64,000 nt of DNA from a virus. The stretch lies in UHGV virus genome UHGV-1351770; one strand, given 5' to 3'. The translations under genes were made by a program, and so were the position numbers. Under the pieces are notes generated by a model that was given only the letters and a program-made list of their open reading frames with translations, made no database searches and had not been told where the DNA came from. Positions 6,387-61,501 of this stretch are shown piece by piece; positions within the stretch are counted from its first letter, which is position 1, and every line of letters starts with the position of its first letter.

Positions 6387-6670
6387 TCCTATAGTGTACT
6401 TCGCTAACAGAGGATCAACAAAAAGATCTTGTTTATCAACTTACAAATATATTATACCAATATATACAGTAAAAAGCAACTACAATTTTAAATAAGCCTA
6501 TGATATTGCATTTAAATAAAAATTTGCTTGCTTTTAGCGTGAGATGTGTGATACTAGATAATCATTTTATATCGCGTGCACGAGTGCGTGATTATACAAT
6601 TTTTAATAGAGATTGGCAAATAAAATTTTTTGACTCAGATCATGTTACAGAACTTTATAGTAAAATATTG

Positions 6671-6699
6671 TTGACATCCGCCCTCGAATGAGTTATAAT
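6671..6699 (+). promoter_or_regulatory. sigma70-type promoter upstream of nrdD (TTGACA, 17 bp, TATAAT)
   Basis: ttgaca at 6671..6676 and tataat at 6694..6699, with exact 17-bp spacing. Confidence 0.7.
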
Positions 6700-6728
6700 A
6701 GTAGTCTTAGTTAGAGAAGGAGAGTGTA

Positions 6729-9197: not shown

Positions 9198-9387
9198 GGG
9201 TTTAAACTCCGCTTTGGAAAACGCATTAATGCAGCACTGGGAAACTGGCTATAAGGATGGTGTTGAATCCTGCGCTACTATGCTAGAAGTTATTGCTAAT
9301 ACCTTAATGGAGAAAGGTAACAAAGAATTAGCTGAGCTGTTAGACAGTATTGGGCAAAACTTTAGAGAACAGGTGAAAAATGCGTAG
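9166..9387 (+). CDS. hypothetical protein (73 aa)
   Basis: Overlaps its neighbours by short start/stop overlaps, suggesting translational coupling. Confidence 0.5.
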   Translation: MAFSKPMLPDKGLNSALENALMQHWETGYKDGVESCATMLEVIANTLMEKGNKELAELLDSIGQNFREQVKNA

Positions 9388-10195
9388 ATTAATTATTATT
9401 AGCGGTGCAGGTTTGAGTGTTGAAAGTGGTGTACGAGCCTTCCGTACTGATACTACTAGTGGTAAAGCATTATGGGATGATTATGATCTAGAAGAAGTAT
9501 GTAATATTCATGCCTTTCGTGGTAATTTTTATCATAAAACCCATATGTTTTACAACAAGCGTCGTGAAGAGCTAAAAACTGTTGAACCCAATCTTGCGCA
9601 TTTGCGTATTGGTGAATGGTATAAACAATACCCTGGTCAAGTAGTAAACTTGACCACCAACGTAGATGACCTTATTGAGCGTGCTGGCGTTCCACATAAT
9701 GACATTCTGCACATTCACGGATATTTAAAAGAGGTTGTTGTAGCTGATAGCTACAATAGTAGCAATAAACGGATTATTGACGTAGGATACAATTCTATTG
9801 ATCCAGATGATTATAAATGGGTTAAACCTAATGTAATCTTCTTTGGAGAGCATGCTCCTGCATATGCAGAAATGTACAATGTTTTTGATGGTATTACCAG
9901 TCAGGATATGATCGTTGTGGTTGGTTGCTCTAACCAAGTAATTAACTTCTACTGGGAATTATTTCCTGTTCTTAATTTGACTGCTGCCAAGCTAATGATT
10001 GTTAACTACTATGATAGTGCACTAGCGGAGGAACCGGGCTATCAAGGTATGACTCGTAGTGAGATGTACCAGCTGGAAGAACGCGGTATCCCTTACTGGA
10101 GTAAAGGTGCGGTAGATGCTTTCAGTGATCCTGATTTTATTGCTCGTGTAGAAGCTCATTTAGGGGGTAGACCTTATGTGTCAGGAAATAAGTAA
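9380..10195 (+). CDS. Sir2-family NAD-dependent deacylase/ADP-ribosyltransferase-like protein lacking the zinc ribbon
   Basis: 271 aa. Rossmann motifs SGAGLSVESGVRAFR, TTNVDDLIERAG, HIHGY and VKPNVIFFGE are present. The CxxC...CxxC zinc module between them is absent. Confidence 0.8.
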   Translation: MRRLIIISGAGLSVESGVRAFRTDTTSGKALWDDYDLEEVCNIHAFRGNFYHKTHMFYNKRREELKTVEPNLAHLRIGEWYKQYPGQVVNLTTNVDDLIERAGVPHNDILHIHGYLKEVVVADSYNSSNKRIIDVGYNSIDPDDYKWVKPNVIFFGEHAPAYAEMYNVFDGITSQDMIVVVGCSNQVINFYWELFPVLNLTAAKLMIVNYYDSALAEEPGYQGMTRSEMYQLEERGIPYWSKGAVDAFSDPDFIARVEAHLGGRPYVSGNK

Positions 10196-10688
10196 TACTC
10201 CAATTATTTTTCTAGACATTGATGGGGTGCTCAATTCGAGCATCTCCCACCATCATGCACCTGATGATGAAAAGATTTTCTTTGGAAGTGACTGGGTTTT
10301 CAAACCGCTTCTCAAGGCTTTTCAGGACTTTATTCGTCCTTCTCCGATAATGATTGTTGGAGTATCATCTTGGTTCTCTGTCAGGAATGAGATGGAGAAC
10401 GTTCAGATTATGACCAGATTAGGTCTTATCGATCGTTTTCTTGGTACAACGGATTTTACTGGTGGTGGATTATCTAGGGGTAATTCTGTTCTTCGCTTCG
10501 TTGAAAAGCATAAGCTCAAACATTGGTGTGTGCTGGATGATGCCGGTGCTATGATGTATCAGTATCCAACGGTTATAGTCAATGGTAGGACTGGGATAAA
10601 TCTTCAAGATTTAAAAGCTGTTAGCTATATGCTAGAATTTAGTCCAGATCTTGAAATGTGTAAATCCTTGCAACAATTTAAGGTGTAA
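10176..10688 (+). CDS. HAD-superfamily phosphatase-like protein
   Basis: 170 aa. Motif I FLDIDGVLN, motif II VGVSS, C-terminal VLDDAG. Overlaps the Sir2-like gene by 20 nt. Confidence 0.65.
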   Translation: MCQEISNTPIIFLDIDGVLNSSISHHHAPDDEKIFFGSDWVFKPLLKAFQDFIRPSPIMIVGVSSWFSVRNEMENVQIMTRLGLIDRFLGTTDFTGGGLSRGNSVLRFVEKHKLKHWCVLDDAGAMMYQYPTVIVNGRTGINLQDLKAVSYMLEFSPDLEMCKSLQQFKV

Positions 10689-10690
10689 AT

Positions 10691-11119
10691 ATGTTCAATA
10701 ATGTATTCTCTAAAGAAGCTAACCCAATTTTGGTTAACTTTTGGCGTACTCTCCCAGCTAGCCTGTATAATGAGGTTATTAACTCTTTGAAAATATGGTG
10801 TGAGAATAACGAAATCTCCTTTGCTTTTAAAGATGATATTGATGAGGCTCCCTGTATTGGTTTAATTGTGCAGGTAGAGGAGGGTCTTGAAGAGATTGTC
10901 GGCTGGAAAGAGTTAGATGAAATGGGCTTAGTTTTTGCGTTAAACTATAAGCTGTTTATGCCTGCTAAGCATCGCCTCGTTGTTAATTATAAAACTAGTG
11001 AATCTCCTGGTTTTCAGGTTAATGAACGTTATGGTTGGTCTTACTCACCGGAAGAAGTAAATGAGGGGATTCAGAAACTTCGCCGTTTTGGTTATCAAAT
11101 TCCGGGTTTAACTGCCTAA
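10691..11119 (+). CDS. hypothetical protein, paralog A of a tandem pair
   Basis: 142 aa. Shares PCIG, MGLVFALN and C-terminal GYQIPGL blocks with the next ORF. Confidence 0.6.
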   Translation: MFNNVFSKEANPILVNFWRTLPASLYNEVINSLKIWCENNEISFAFKDDIDEAPCIGLIVQVEEGLEEIVGWKELDEMGLVFALNYKLFMPAKHRLVVNYKTSESPGFQVNERYGWSYSPEEVNEGIQKLRRFGYQIPGLTA

Positions 11120-11128
11120 GGGGGCATA

Positions 11129-11518
11129 ATGGAACAAGTATATTGGCGTCAGATTGACCCTAGTTTGGTGAAACGTGCGGAGAAGCTGCTACAACGTTGG
11201 TTGGGGGTAAGACAAGCCTCCTTCACTTTTCCTGAGCAGCAAACGGATGATCCATGTATTGGCGTTTTCCTGTCTGGATATGCCGAGGAATGGGAGATGG
11301 ATTGGAATGAATTGTCCGCTATGGGTTTAATTGTTGCCCTAAACTTCTCTATATTCCATCCACGTGGTTTGGCCATATGTCGTGTGCCGGATGATGGTTG
11401 TTCGCCCCATCTTTTACAGGTGGAAGATGATATTTGGGAGTACACTCCAGATATTCTCAAAGAAGCTAAAGAACAGTTAAACCGTGTTGGGATCTATGTT
11501 CCGGGATTAAATGACTAA
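11129..11518 (+). CDS. hypothetical protein, paralog B of a tandem pair
   Basis: 129 aa. Carries PCIG, MGLIVALN and GIYVPGL blocks collinear with paralog A. Confidence 0.6.
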   Translation: MEQVYWRQIDPSLVKRAEKLLQRWLGVRQASFTFPEQQTDDPCIGVFLSGYAEEWEMDWNELSAMGLIVALNFSIFHPRGLAICRVPDDGCSPHLLQVEDDIWEYTPDILKEAKEQLNRVGIYVPGLND

Positions 11519-11544
11519 TGATTTTTATTAGCTGAACTCTGATT

Positions 11545-11570
11545 ACCGAGTCATTTTGGCTCGGTTTTAT
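11545..11570 (+). terminator. intrinsic terminator closing the 8703-11518 operon
   Basis: accgag-tcattttgg-ctcggt hairpin followed by tttat. Confidence 0.6.
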
Positions 11571-11613
11571 CCGTACTCAAGACCAATGATAGCACCATCC
11601 GGAAAATTTTACT

Positions 11614-11641
11614 TGCAGGATGCTCAAAATCTTGATATAAT
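11614..11641 (+). promoter_or_regulatory. early sigma70-type promoter (TTGCAG, 16 bp, TATAAT)
   Basis: ttgcag 11614..11619 and tataat 11636..11641. A second candidate (ttgcta...tacaat) lies around 11683..11712. Confidence 0.55.
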
Positions 11642-11689
11642 ATTTATATTGAATTGAGAGACATTAGTAAAAATTGATTTTGCTAATTT

Positions 11690-12140
11690 TTCTTGTTTAC
11701 AATCCGCGATACGGAACAGTTAGGCTGCCCCATTAAGGGTTGTTTTAACTGTTACGTGTTAGTTTTTAAACAAATAGTTAATAGAATACTTAGCGATCTG
11801 CGTCCCGTAGGAACCCTGGTAAGGCCTCGAAGCAACCTAGATAGAGGTGGTTGTGAAGTGAGACGGGAGGAGTGAAAAACTCCGAGACGTGATTCTGTAA
11901 GTTATACTGCATCTAGTATGAGCTAGTATATGAAGCATTAGGTGAGCAAATCTGGCTTAGCGGCCATCCTCAAGGATTTGTGCGGTATAGCAAAGCAGCA
12001 GCGCAGCGTGAAAGTGGAAGTTGCCACCCCACTTCAGTATTTGCGATTAATTTGTTGAGAAATTGACAGTAACAGTTGTTCTATTCTTTCTGAATAGTCC
12101 TAAAGAAAACTTATTTCATTTCCAACACAGGAGTATTGTT
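11690..12140 (+). other. about 440-nt untranslated, structure-rich leader upstream of the PrimPol-helicase gene (candidate regulatory RNA or ncRNA)
   Basis: No credible ORF (only a 60-aa ORF with no RBS). Several local hairpins, for example aacagtta/taactgtt, ggagt-GAAAA-actcc, and directly repeated gagacg. GC content is higher than in the flanking regions. Confidence 0.35.
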
Positions 12141-14930
12141 GTGTTCTCAATCCTACAAGGTCATGCAGGATTTCATCGCGATTTAGCTACAGGCAATTGG
12201 CGAGAAGTTAAAGCAGAAGACTATCTTTTTGCTAAAAGATTTTCCTCAAAGCATCCTGAAGGTAAACCAGCTTCAATGCCCTTCAAGTTTGATGTAATTG
12301 ATGAAGTTGATCCGCAAACCCTAGTAGAAATGCTTCCTCTTATGAGACGTTTAACGTCTGACCCTCATATCGTTGCGGTACGAGGTAGATGTCTTGCACC
12401 TAAAAATAATGTGCGACGTAAGAAGGGCAACTTTAATGTATCTAACCCAAGCAATATAATTGCAATGGACGTGGATGGTATTGTAGATACAGGTGGTTGT
12501 AACAAGTTTGATCTTGTTGGCATGGCTCGACATATTATTAGAATGTTAAATAGTATTAGTGAGGATATGTTTCCTCTTGATGCAGGGTTTATCGCTCATG
12601 CATCGTCTTCGGCTGGGCTAAAACCGGGTATCCGAATGCACTTAATACTAGAATCTAATGTTAAAGTAACTCAGGGTCAAATCAAATTCTTATTTACATC
12701 TATCAACGAAAGTAGTAGACAAAAGTATGGCTTTGATATTGCCGACTTAGCTTATTACTCTTCCGTACAGCTCCATTATTTTGCAGATCCGTTATTTACC
12801 GATGGTATAGTAGATCCGTTTAAAGCGGAGGGTGCTTCACGTCTGGTATTTGTTAAGGGTTCTAAAGTAAATTTACCCAATAATCTGGTTGACTATGAAA
12901 CAGCTAGAGGTGAGTTTAAGGAGGAGTTTTACTCTTTACTCGATCAAATTAAAGGTAAAAAAGCTGCCTCTGATAAAGTAGAGGAAACTATCAGCGAACT
13001 AGAAGAAGCTGAGGATGGAGTGTATCTACGTATCATACCTAAACTCTATCACAGAGCCTTAGAGGATGGTGTTGATTTTGCATGGCTAGAAAAAGAAATC
13101 CGTCCAGCCTTATCAGAATATATTGCAACTAAAGATAACAGTCGCAATATTCAAGATTACTTTAATAACGGTCGTAAACAGGCTCTGAAAGCATTTGTTA
13201 ATAATTCTAAACGTGATATACCTGATGTTTTAAAGGGTATTCCACTCAAAAAGCTAGAAACTAATTCTCTAGAAACTGATAACTTCTTGAAATTAAATAC
13301 TGTACCACCAGAAGGTTATATGACTTTTGTAAAAGCAAGTCTAGGTACAGGTAAAACTACAGCGGTTGTGCGTTGGTTAGATTCAGGAGTTATTAAAGGT
13401 AATTTCTTAGCAATTACCAATACTCGAGCACTGGTATCTTCAAATGCTAAGAAATTTAGTGCAGGACAATATGATAAGTCTGTAGATATGCTTAATTTTA
13501 AGCGTGGTGCTATTGACCGTATGTCCACAACTATTCACTCTTTGCATAAGTTCAAGAGTTTTATTGGTCAAATCGATGCAATCTTTATCGATGAATGTGA
13601 TGCTGTAATGAATGACCTACTATTCGCCCCGGTTGTTAAACAACGTCGTGAATGTATTCAGGTTCTTCGGGATATTCTTGCAACTGCAAAAATCATTATA
13701 TTATCTGATGGGGATATTAGTGCAGAAACAATTGAAGCATATGGTTCTTTGATTGAGTTTGATAAACCAGTAGCATTTTATAATCATCACCGTAAGATGC
13801 TGTCAAAAGCTCATGCTTATGAGTTTCCTGATGAATCCAGTATTTGGGTTGCACTTCAGACTTCTCTAGAAATGGGGGAGAAATCTATTCTGGTATCTGA
13901 TTGTGGCCCGGATGAACTGAATGAGAAGGGCATGGCGTTGCGTCGTAATACTGGTGCGTTAGTTAAGGAAATCCACTCAAATTCTACATCCGATGTAGAT
14001 ATTCGACGTATTCTGGATTACACAACTAATGAGCTAATTGATCAACAAATTGATTGCTTATTATGTAGTCCATCCGTAACAAGTGGTGTTGACTTCAACT
14101 ATTTTGATAACGTATTCGTTATTACTAGAACCAGCAACCAAGCGCCAAACATGCGTTTCCAAGCAATCAGGCGCGACCGTGGCGCTCAGAACATTTATTA
14201 TTTTATTGATAAATCTACGAGTGGATTCTCCGCAGGTTCTGAGCAATATAACATTGATGAAGGTTGGCTGGAGTTAGCACAGCAATTATACGCACGTCGC
14301 AGGGAGCTGGAATCTAGAAACTATACTAGTACTTTACGTTATTACTTGCTTGATCAGGGTGCAACTATTGATATTTTCAGCGAAAGCTGGGGAACTATCG
14401 AAGGTGCAGGAAAAGAGTATACGGAAGAGCGAATCAAAGCTATTTTGTATTCAACCCCTGATTATTGTGCTCCACGCCATGCAGATGCGTATGAAGCTAA
14501 ACTACTTCTTGTTCGCTATTATCATCTTGAGTCTATTAAAGATGTAACAGTTGAGCATGTTGAACAATATATCAAGGATAAACCGAATGATCGAGCGGCA
14601 TTCTTCCATAAAATGCACGAGATGTTCTGGGAAGATATTAAGAAGTGTTCAAATGTCACTATCAAACCATTCATAGAAGCTCTGAAAGGTAAGAAGAAAG
14701 ATTTCTTCCTTAAAACAGGTCAGAGTGCTAACCCAAAATATGCTAGAATGTATCTTGGTATGATGGGTATTGGTAAGGATATGAACACGGAGAATATTGT
14801 AGACTGGTACAGAACCTATTGTAAAATCGAGTGTATGCCAATCCCGTATAAGTTTATGACTGATGAGGAGAAACATATGCATGATGAAGCAATGGCAGAG
14901 CTAGGTGCTAGAAATGACAGTGAAGAATAA
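12141..14930 (+). CDS. primase-polymerase (AEP-like) fused to a Walker A/B NTPase helicase; putative origin-binding replication initiator
   Basis: GTG at 12141 with AGGAG at 12129..12133 (7-nt spacer); the track's TTG at 12063 has no RBS. N-terminus has IIAMDVDG (DxD) and an AHASSS...RMHLIL (sxH-like) motif. Middle has Walker A SLGTGKTT and Walker B IFIDECD. Confidence 0.7.
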   Translation: MFSILQGHAGFHRDLATGNWREVKAEDYLFAKRFSSKHPEGKPASMPFKFDVIDEVDPQTLVEMLPLMRRLTSDPHIVAVRGRCLAPKNNVRRKKGNFNVSNPSNIIAMDVDGIVDTGGCNKFDLVGMARHIIRMLNSISEDMFPLDAGFIAHASSSAGLKPGIRMHLILESNVKVTQGQIKFLFTSINESSRQKYGFDIADLAYYSSVQLHYFADPLFTDGIVDPFKAEGASRLVFVKGSKVNLPNNLVDYETARGEFKEEFYSLLDQIKGKKAASDKVEETISELEEAEDGVYLRIIPKLYHRALEDGVDFAWLEKEIRPALSEYIATKDNSRNIQDYFNNGRKQALKAFVNNSKRDIPDVLKGIPLKKLETNSLETDNFLKLNTVPPEGYMTFVKASLGTGKTTAVVRWLDSGVIKGNFLAITNTRALVSSNAKKFSAGQYDKSVDMLNFKRGAIDRMSTTIHSLHKFKSFIGQIDAIFIDECDAVMNDLLFAPVVKQRRECIQVLRDILATAKIIILSDGDISAETIEAYGSLIEFDKPVAFYNHHRKMLSKAHAYEFPDESSIWVALQTSLEMGEKSILVSDCGPDELNEKGMALRRNTGALVKEIHSNSTSDVDIRRILDYTTNELIDQQIDCLLCSPSVTSGVDFNYFDNVFVITRTSNQAPNMRFQAIRRDRGAQNIYYFIDKSTSGFSAGSEQYNIDEGWLELAQQLYARRRELESRNYTSTLRYYLLDQGATIDIFSESWGTIEGAGKEYTEERIKAILYSTPDYCAPRHADAYEAKLLLVRYYHLESIKDVTVEHVEQYIKDKPNDRAAFFHKMHEMFWEDIKKCSNVTIKPFIEALKGKKKDFFLKTGQSANPKYARMYLGMMGIGKDMNTENIVDWYRTYCKIECMPIPYKFMTDEEKHMHDEAMAELGARNDSEE

Positions 14931-61091: not shown

Positions 61092-61268
61092 TTAGTATAA
61101 AGCAAAAAGACATCCAAGTAAACTAAATTTTTATTTTTTGGATGGTATATTGGCAGAAACCACTATGTAAGAAAAGTAGAAGTCCTTTCTAGGAAGTCAC
61201 GAGCATAGTTGGTTATGCACAAACTATAAAATATTTTAAAATATCATATTTATTGGAGCATGAAAGAT

Positions 61269-61397
61269 ATGTCAAATAAAAGAAAGAACAGACGCGGAGA
61301 AGTGTACGAAGCGTGGATTAATATTTACGGATTTGGTTTTGTGTTATTCCTAGTCTTCGTAGGTTTTTGGTTAGCAGCTATGGCGGGGTGGATTTAA
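61269..61397 (+). CDS. small membrane protein (42 aa, single TM)
   Basis: MSNKRKNRRGEVYEAWINIYGFGFVLFLVFVGFWLAAMAGWI. Its stop overlaps the next ATG (tAATGg). Confidence 0.45.
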   Translation: MSNKRKNRRGEVYEAWINIYGFGFVLFLVFVGFWLAAMAGWI

Positions 61398-61501
61398 TGG
61401 AAGTAATAATTATTGTTTTATTAGTTGTGATAATTCTAGGGCAGTGTGTCTTGGATAACCACTTAGCTCGTATTGAACGTAAGCTGCGGGAATATAAATA
61501 A
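61397..61501 (+). CDS. small membrane protein (34 aa, single TM)
   Basis: MEVIIIVLLVVIILGQCVLDNHLARIERKLREYK, stop/start-overlapped on both sides. Confidence 0.4.
   Translation: MEVIIIVLLVVIILGQCVLDNHLARIERKLREYK

Follow-up and report, generated by a model that had tools for sequence, protein, structure and literature searches.

What occupies the long stretch in front of the replication gene D2 of a T5-like phage, where no credible protein can be read? The question is raised by positions 11690 to 12140 of the virus genome UHGV-1351770, of which a stretch of 64,000 nucleotides (nt) was analyzed (hereafter, the window); the phage is T5-like and belongs to the genus Tequintavirus. The downstream gene is D2 of T5, annotated as a replication origin binding protein (obp). 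In an original prediction made from the sequence alone, the region was described as an unusually long, hairpin-rich leader free of open reading frames (ORFs). The length is indeed exceptional: positions 11519-12062 are not covered by any ORF of ≥70 amino acids (aa), and this is the longest such gap within the 64-kb window. The median there is 59 nt, and the gaps next in length have 409 and 342 nt. The analysis described here finds that ~11699-12097 folds into one large, long-range, pseudoknotted RNA, a previously undescribed structured leader of D2/obp that is conserved in enterobacterial T5-like phages.

Compensatory Changes Identify a Conserved Plus-Strand RNA

Alignment of the regions upstream of obp is poor overall, with invariant islands amid divergence, a pattern typical of structured RNA. 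Two islands, ACrGAACrGUynGGCyGC and CUUAGCGG, lie 224-238 nt apart in the lineages that have both, and CUUAGCGG is invariant in all lineages compared. Independent minimum free energy (MFE) folds of nine lineages led to one common architecture, consisting of a domain P1, a closing helix P2, and a ~245-nt core (P3-P10). The fold has at least 12 helices and extends over ~400 nt.

Conservation of the pairing was assessed in two alignments. The first, to which no structure had been fitted, was a plain MAFFT alignment of 16 window-type sequences together with Erwinia phage KEY and the locus L063 (n = 18), evaluated for the 123 pairs of the window model. In this alignment, 95.7% of cells are paired, compared with 91.9% in shuffles, and 28 pairs have changed on both sides, compared with 9.1 in shuffles; none of 500 shuffles scored as high, and slid controls gave 3-7. 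Compensatory changes are found even among the near-identical (type-A) phages, in P3 (two positions), P4, P6, P6.5, and P10. The second alignment covers 11 lineages. Because MAFFT misaligned even the invariant anchor when all lineages were included, the helix blocks were built by hand: helix strands were extracted, N-padded, and held in register by artificial spacers. This alignment was fitted to the structure by the analyst and its figures are to be taken accordingly: 98.3% paired versus 64.4% in shuffles, both-sided changes in 43 of 47 pairs, and a covariation score of 0.871 versus 0.221 in shuffles and 0.08-0.14 in slid controls. The original prediction had called for an RNA explanation and had proposed a covariation analysis across T5-like genomes; with both-sided changes in 28 (unfitted) to 43 (hand-built) pairs, the explanation is upheld, and covariation reveals more than the local stem-loops from which it had started.

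The region could, in principle, hold no functional folded RNA at all and be instead an inverted repeat in decay, a scar left by a mobile element, or a small protein gene that had been missed. Very short ORFs are annotated here in relatives, insertions (a 98-nt element and an HNH gene, described below) lie nearby, and the minus strand folds with a similar z score. The MFE of 11645-12145 corresponds to z = -3.05 on the plus strand and -3.41 on the minus strand; as the two are similar, fold energy alone is undecided on the strand, and the comparative data decide. In P2 of nine lineages, 74 G·U pairs are found versus 2 A·C single mismatches. Both the neutral decay of a DNA inverted repeat and a fold of the minus strand predict similar numbers of the two and are thus excluded. 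The hand blocks give 61 G·U and 0 A·C, a contrast that is partly circular. When the arms of P2 are taken at fixed coordinates, their complementarity reaches z scores of -2.8 to -6.7 in eight of nine lineages despite differing arm sequences; the ninth, Sugarland, has z = -0.6 because of an inserted hairpin. The promoter and the downstream gene are both on the plus strand.

Coding potential is absent. The only notable plus-strand ORF (60 aa, TTG start, 11693-11875) has no Pfam match and is not kept in other lineages, and of the ORFs of 30-73 aa present on both strands in the lineage comparison, none is common beyond close relatives. The conserved protein gene that the original prediction feared might have been overlooked is therefore not there, no ORF being conserved between lineages. 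Together with the compensatory changes and the two motifs that are invariant at fixed spacing across genera, these findings largely refute the absence of a folded-RNA function, which is now highly improbable. Conversely, that the region encodes a conserved RNA folded from the plus strand can be stated with high confidence.

Architecture of the RNA

All elements described in this section are on the plus strand. The P1 domain (11699-11743) consists of P1 (11699-705/11737-43), P1b (11713-14/11728-29), and the P1a hairpin CAGU-UAG-GCUG (11717-27). It carries the near-invariant AUACrGAACrGUynGGCyGC, read from invariant alignment columns, and P1a and P1b covary (A-U to G-C; GG/CC to AG/CU). The core is closed by P2, whose 5' arm (11746-11790) forms 39 pairs with the 3' arm (12036-12078) according to duplexfold, in runs of 10, 11, and 11 base pairs (bp) split by single mismatches or a bulge. 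Inside P2, the strands of P3o (11792-95) and P3 (11798-803), which together span 11792-11803 with a conserved AU bulge between them, pair with the 3' strands of P3 (12001-06) and P3o (12007-10) at 12001-12010, and covariation is seen on both sides. All six pairs of P3 covary (CUGCGU/GCGCAG, CUGUGU/GCACAG, CUACAC/GUGUAG, CUAGAA/UUCUAG, and UUGCUA/UAGCAA). At the P2/P3o junction (11789-11796), sequences of the window type, and only these, have a second near-copy of the invariant motif, CUUAGCGA.

The P4 domain (11804-11867) comprises P4 (11804-08/11863-67), P4a, with GGUAA at 11818-22 in its loop, and P5 (11832-37/11849-54), which has an 11-nt loop, UAGAUAGAGGU. P4 and P5 are 100% paired in the hand blocks, with all 5 + 5 pairs covarying, and they covary in the unfitted alignment too. 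The hairpin P6, GGAGU-GAAAA-ACUCC (11869-11883), covaries and is followed by a conserved junction J6/7, GAGAnGUGA. P6 is an optional element; T5 and EPS7 (type-B sequences) are without it, and their P5 is longer than that of the window. The P7 domain (11895-11998) is made up of P6.5 (11895-97/11996-98), P7 (11901-11/11981-91), and P8 (11947-53/11974-80) with a 3' bulge at 11966-73. On P8 sits the mini-hairpin P8a (11954-11965; stem 11954-57/11962-65, loop UAGC), which carries the invariant CUUAGCGG. P7, P8, and P8a covary in the hand blocks and in the unfitted alignment. The last element of the core is the P10 hairpin (12013-12033), in which AGUGG/CCACU encloses an 11-nt loop, AAGUUGCCACC, containing UUGCC (12021-25); P10 is 100% paired and covaries in both alignments.

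Two pseudoknots are predicted within this framework. PK1, found by inspection, joins GAGG in the P5 loop (11844-11847) to CCUC (11968-71) in the bulge of P8. Its partners change in step in every lineage: GAGG/CCUC, UAGAG/CUCUA, UUAAGG/CCUUAA, UAAGG/CCUUA, UAGG/CCUA, CAUGU/ACAUG, CAUG/CAUG, and AUCAGA/UCUGAU. In the hand blocks PK1 is 100% paired with four of four pairs covarying, and three of four covary in the unfitted alignment. A conservative test, in which loop and bulge were shuffled with their composition kept, gave a combined Fisher p = 2.6e-3. From these comparisons of sequence, PK1 is a well-supported candidate for a loop-bulge pseudoknot. PK2, a loop-loop contact between GGUAA (11818-22) and UUGCC (12021-25), is proposed tentatively. 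It is 90%-99% paired, and in the hand blocks four of five pairs show both-sided change, with one position unpaired in three lineages; in the unfitted alignment, none of its pairs has changed on both sides.

The terminal hairpin P11, CUAUUC-UUUCU-GAAUAG (12081-12097), is seen in the MFE fold, and an equivalent small hairpin was recognized by eye in other lineages. As it is not followed by a U tract, it is not an intrinsic terminator, and the terminator scan made no call at this site.

The local elements singled out in the original prediction can now be placed in the fold. GGAGU-GAAAA-ACUCC is real and is P6. The pair aacagtta/taactgtt lies outside the conserved fold: it is the inverted repeat I4, one arm of which falls within the P1 domain, whereas the 5' arm of P2 provides the second. 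As a conserved hairpin it was rejected, the pairing being absent in Erwinia phage KEY and in others outside the T5 group, and it is treated as a chance or lineage-specific alternative pairing. The repeated gagacg is incidental and corresponds to the 3' strand of P4 and to J6/7.

Upstream of the fold, an AU-rich 5'-proximal hairpin termed H0 (11656-11694; stem 11663-72/11678-87, loop AUUGA, then UUUUUCUU) is present in the MFE and centroid folds and occurs once in the window. H0 is a candidate 5' stabilizer or weak attenuator.

The RNA Is Specific to T5-like Phages and Matches No Known Family

Equivalent ORF-free stretches of 560-710 nt, headed by a strong promoter, lie directly upstream of obp and in the same orientation in Tequintavirus and Epseptimavirus, in Erwinia phage KEY, Klebsiella phage Sugarland (Sugarlandvirus), and Pectobacterium phage My1 (Myunavirus), and in Providencia phages PSTCR5 and PR1 (Priunavirus) and Proteus phages. 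The query region itself shares 99.5% identity with phages chee24 and Lindwurm and has matches in ~540 phage records. In IMG/VR, the combined signature of the RNA was matched 31 times, each time in a T5-like contig (96-123 kb); it had 0 matches in 185,579 bacterial and archaeal species, searched with one genome each. All signature matches are at one syntenic place; the RNA is never found away from obp. Two covariance models were built, R1 from the P7/P8 domain with a single-lineage seed and R2 from the P4-P6 domain with nine seeds. R1 matches KEY and L063 (E ~1e-5, 38-39 bits), and R2 matches KEY, L063, L039, and My1 at E ≤1e-23; sequences of the window type (type A) are also strongly recognized. 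In the Proteus lineage, neither model has a syntenic match.

A scan with Infernal against Rfam, suggested along with the original prediction, returned no family, ribozymes included. Rfam 15 holds 4227 models, which cover riboswitches, ribozymes, RNase P, tmRNA, 6S, group I/II introns, and HEARO, and among which the GOLLD and ROOL families are expected. In 10500-13500 of the window, searched at E up to 10, there were only two chance matches of 13 bits; the whole window had no match at the gathering threshold, and at E up to 1, the loci of 14 relatives had nothing in the region. ARAGORN detected no transfer RNA (tRNA) or transfer-messenger RNA. RNase P RNA was considered on account of the look-alike strings ACAGAAC..CGGCU and GGCUUAnCGG and was rejected, as motif order and helix topology do not match. 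A blastn comparison of Escherichia coli rnpB with 13 upstream regions stayed at chance level (best E 1.5, no colinear blocks), and the RNase P models had no match at E up to 10. A search of the literature found no description of this RNA.

Several relatives depart from the common arrangement. In L018 (~1185-1282), and also in L032 and L045 (SP3/Gostya9-like), a 98-nt insertion bordered by the direct repeat TTTTTCTT lies exactly between H0 and P1, after the position equivalent to window 11694; it has no Rfam match, and its fold is ordinary (z = -0.4). In Salmonella phage Shivani (L010), the gene for an HNH homing endonuclease has inserted on the upstream side of the promoter of the RNA (692-1144), and the promoter-proximal H0 module (GAGAGACATTAGTAAAAATTGATTTTGCTAATTTTTCT) is present in a second copy at ~1280-1350. 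In L041, of the Proteus lineage, ~190 extra GC-rich nt between the RNA and obp (1240-1500) include a motif, CCUUAGCCG, that resembles the invariant CUUAGCGG. Vibrio T5-like phages (L008 ~1030-1716, L051-L055) have a GC-/purine-rich, ORF-free region of ~550-650 nt before obp with predicted long-range helices, and a terminator-like hairpin right after the promoter, as in the window. The Vibrio loci have no CUUAGCGG signature and no R2 match, and homology with the window RNA could not be shown; the region may be a distant homolog or an analogous second RNA. In the uncultured phages L048 (~1200-1500), L047, and L065, the region upstream of obp is AT-rich, with a tandem direct repeat of two copies of AGAATTTTTGAAAG and an origin-like look.

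A Leader of the D2 Transcript

The transcription unit is delimited by signals that had been noted in the original prediction and that are borne out by the sequence, by relatives, and by the annotation of T5. The higher GC content of the leader is confirmed in the window (0.45-0.485 at 11700-12000 versus 0.305-0.315 in the adjacent 11500-11800 intervals). The surrounding coding sequence has a GC content mostly of 0.32-0.44. The intrinsic terminator of the upstream operon (11545-11570, plus strand) consists of a hairpin at 11545-65, ACCGAGUCA-UUU-UGGCUCGGU, followed by a U run; it is the inverted repeat I11. The annotations of relatives and of T5 list it as a terminator, and it sets the 5' limit of the transcription unit. 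It is followed by an early sigma-70 promoter on the plus strand (11613-11641) with a -35 element TTGCAG at 11613-18, a 17-nt spacer, and an extended -10 element TGaTATAAT at 11633-41. TTGC and TATAAT are invariant columns of the nine-lineage alignment, and promoter-like sites occur at the equivalent place in PSTCR5, My1, VF16, and the Proteus lineage. In the T5 reference record, a terminator and a promoter are annotated at the equivalent place, followed by a 470-nt blank until T5.108. An ATATT-type discriminator of T5 early promoters has been described (PMC7472727). Transcription probably starts at ~11648. At the other end, the Shine-Dalgarno sequence (SD) AGGAG (12129-33) precedes the GTG start codon (12141) of the 929-aa D2/obp ORF, the two together spanning 12129-12143 on the plus strand; the ribosome-binding region CAACAnAGGAG is kept in relatives.

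The upstream neighbor is a 129-aa DUF7415 ORF that ends at 11518. It belongs to an operon (9380-11518) that also encodes a protein named Sir2-like in relatives, a 170-aa protein annotated in one relative as similar to an RNA repair protein, and a 142-aa paralog of the DUF7415 protein. As to the two next longest gaps of the window, the 409-nt one (61092-61500) seems by eye to contain short ORFs of <70 aa, the 342-nt one is at 6387-6728, and neither has an Rfam match at the gathering threshold.

Among the readings offered in the original prediction, a cis-regulatory structured RNA is the one that we favor. The RNA would be a cis-acting regulatory or processing leader of the D2 messenger RNA (mRNA), to which we assign a probability of roughly 0.45. 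In this model, 11648-12140 would be transcribed from the conserved early promoter as the 5' leader of the D2/obp mRNA and would act on its own transcript, setting the amount and timing of D2. A factor of the phage or of the host may bind to the folded core, which would serve as its platform. The P2 duplex would be the likely entry site of RNase III, and a cut in P2 could separate the core and leave a shortened, matured D2 mRNA.

The position of the RNA is in agreement with such a role. It lies on the sense strand between the promoter and the start codon of D2, and in eight of nine lineages (including the window, PSTCR5, and My1), the interval from the RNA to the SD had no hit for a further promoter or a terminator, so that D2 must be transcribed through the RNA. 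P11 is only ~30-45 nt from the CAACAnAGGAG region. With 39 pairs, P2 is also long enough for RNase III, whose substrates have at least ~20 bp of nearly unbroken double-stranded RNA.

A number of observations weigh against a cis-acting leader. The Proteus lineage is an exception to the arrangement just described: a second, perfect TTGACA-18-TATAAT promoter lies directly before obp (L041 1435-1464), and D2 can be made there without the leader. A specific fit between the D2 protein and the RNA is weakened because the history of the core differs from that of D2 (60% identity to T5 in the core, 83%-86% in obp). The ~245-nt pseudoknotted core is far larger than known translational operators. No conserved alternative pairing with the SD was seen by inspection, which was not a systematic search; pairing of the SD with the ACUCC strand of P6 is conceivable, but T5 has no P6. 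H0 and its U run are upstream of the fold, not downstream. At the syntenic place, the scores of R1 and R2 were no higher than 7-16 bits in T5/EPS7, Sugarland, and PSTCR5. Homology of these and of the Proteus lineage with the window RNA is proposed from synteny, the two motifs at fixed spacing, the equal order of helices, and covariation in the hand alignment; for T5, the P1 region, 99% identical to the window, adds support. Finally, relatives of obp that are ~42% identical (L047, L048, and L065) have no such RNA upstream.

A Core that Diverges from Its Surroundings

Identity between the window and T5 (L029) changes abruptly along the locus, with a sharp mosaic boundary. It is 99% up to 11745, falls within 11746-12035 to 67% in the 5' arm of P2 and 60% in the core, and recovers to 85% in the 3' arm of P2 and 83%-86% in obp. 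The core is nearer to those of Erwinia phage KEY, L063, and L039 (69%-70%). To judge by these identities, the core resembles a cassette, delimited by P2, that has been exchanged or evolves fast.

Such behavior would suit a stand-alone noncoding RNA (ncRNA), the second of the readings in the original prediction. The core would be excised, for example by RNase III in P2, as ribosomal RNAs (rRNAs) are from their flanking stems, and would act in trans as a ribonucleoprotein scaffold, a decoy or anti-defense RNA, or a ribozyme; its position before D2 would then reflect early timing only. In size, pseudoknots, and invariant single-stranded motifs, the RNA resembles large ncRNAs rather than operators, and its structure is supported by covariation with no conserved ORF. 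The 39-bp closing helix isolates the core, which behaves as an exchangeable or fast-evolving unit, and the strong early promoter is a dedicated one. Because of the Proteus promoter, located downstream of the RNA and serving obp on its own, the divergence of the core, and a size beyond that of operators, the trans-acting RNA is a serious rival of the cis-acting leader. We nevertheless hold it to be rather unlikely, as the RNA never occurs away from obp, all signature matches being syntenic, and resembles no Rfam family, ribozymes included. Moreover, no terminator follows it, and a 3' end of its own would need processing in P2, itself a conjecture.

D2 and the Initiation of Replication

The adjacency of a replication gene raises the further possibility that the RNA belongs to an origin. 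T5 D2 has been characterized biochemically as a bipolar helicase and proposed to be an initiation protein (PMC3632103). Pfam and Protein Data Bank (PDB) sequence searches with D2 detected only a UL9-like superfamily 2 helicase segment at aa 388-533 (Herpes_ori_bp, UL9). The N-terminal 390 aa (window 12141-13310) have no Pfam match and no PDB match by sequence or profile, and in a large protein collection only two partial homologs of this domain were found. D110-x-D112, H167, and D202 do not vary among seven lineages, in which the segment AHASSSAGxKxGIRMH is largely invariant as well. The DxD...H...D pattern is reminiscent of motifs of archaeo-eukaryotic primases, from which the label PrimPol would be a deduction. 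An AlphaFold2 model of the N-terminal domain had a predicted local distance difference test score of 39, from an alignment three sequences deep, and is unusable as evidence for a fold.

If the RNA were associated with an origin, the early transcript might form an R-loop or be processed to a primer, as ColE1 RNA II and the T4 oriF/oriG transcripts do; alternatively, the folded RNA or the displaced plus-strand DNA might load the D2 helicase, and the locus would be a T5 origin. What suggests an origin or primer role is the adjacency of D2 and analogy. A strong promoter and a structure-dependent RNA are combined here as in ColE1 RNA II, and the AT-rich, repeat-bearing region of distant obp relatives is at the equivalent place (L048). 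The RNA adjoins the gene for the UL9-like D2, the proposed initiation protein (PMC3632103), and the T5 locus is mid-genome (~49%). As cited in that paper, an older electron microscopy study reported multiple internal origins in T5 (Bourguignon 1976, cited in PMC3632103). Several findings argue in the other direction. Next to the RNA, neither iterons or DnaA-box-like repeats nor an AT-rich unwinding element are conserved, and the repeat search gave only short two-copy matches and no iteron array. The strand bias seen with recombitrons indicates dominant unidirectional T5 replication from one genome end and thus points to a start there (PMC10055335). G·U-rich helices and a pseudoknot are features of an RNA that folds in the free state rather than of an RNA-DNA hybrid, and PrimPol activity of D2 is putative. 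The origin reading of the original prediction has thus gained no direct support, and we consider it quite improbable.

A more far-reaching version would place the RNA in a class of its own among large functional RNAs, one confined to T5-like phages, and would give it a role beyond that of a passive leader, as a replication-initiation cofactor or as an exchangeable cassette. As a cofactor, it might be a loading scaffold or a source of primers for the D2 helicase and its possible primase domain. As a cassette, the P2-bounded RNA would be released by RNase III and counteract a host factor or defense, which would account for a core that is replaced or diverges far more rapidly than the genes on either side. 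We regard this, too, as unlikely, and the cis-acting leader of D2 remains the working model.

Comparison with Known Systems

T5 is a classic model phage and D2 its candidate replication initiator. A large unannotated pseudoknotted RNA precedes D2 in every enterobacterial T5-like genus examined. With it, the few large structured RNAs without an assigned function gain a new, well-supported family of ~400 nt. It sits in a genetically tractable phage-host pair, so its function is directly testable. Should the RNA control or assist the initiator, this would represent a new way for a virulent phage to time its replication; should it act in trans as a cassette, phages would have a new kind of RNA effector.

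RNase P RNA (rnpB), which has 377 nt in E. coli, is of similar size and likewise combines pseudoknots with a long-range closing helix. Genes for tRNAs are numerous in T5-like phages; ARAGORN detected none in this window. Large, ornate ncRNAs linked to phages and prophages are known in GOLLD and ROOL, which have been studied by electron cryomicroscopy (PMC12286853). The D2 RNA shares with them a length of several hundred nt, a multidomain and pseudoknotted organization kept by covariation, and carriage by phages. Unlike them, it leads one particular gene (D2/obp) and is not near tRNA clusters; it is also smaller (~400 nt), restricted to Demerecviridae, and without a match to either at E up to 10.

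Among origin transcripts, the ColE1 RNA II pre-primer and the T4 oriF/oriG transcripts are, like the D2 RNA, promoter-driven, structured, untranslated RNAs of 400-550 nt located by replication functions. In contrast, the D2 RNA has no adjacent unwinding element and runs directly into an SD and coding sequence; similarity in sequence is not expected. RNase III processing stems are familiar from rRNA precursors, the R sites of T7 early mRNA, and the lambda N leader. P2 resembles them as a 39-bp near-continuous duplex that flanks a structured core in a phage early transcript. The R sites of T7 differ from P2 in that each is a short hairpin containing an internal loop, with no 245-nt core enclosed, and cleavage of P2 is putative.

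Autoregulatory leaders of replication genes are represented by the 5' pseudoknot of T4 gene 32 and the operator of T4 gene 43. These operators comprise 20-40 nt, or one pseudoknot and an unstructured tract, whereas the D2 leader has ~400 nt; the core of the D2 RNA does not coevolve with D2, and binding of a protein to it is putative. What they have in common with the D2 leader is a structured, pseudoknotted 5' leader before the gene for a replication protein of a virulent coliphage, and a cis-acting leader of this kind is the model favored for D2.

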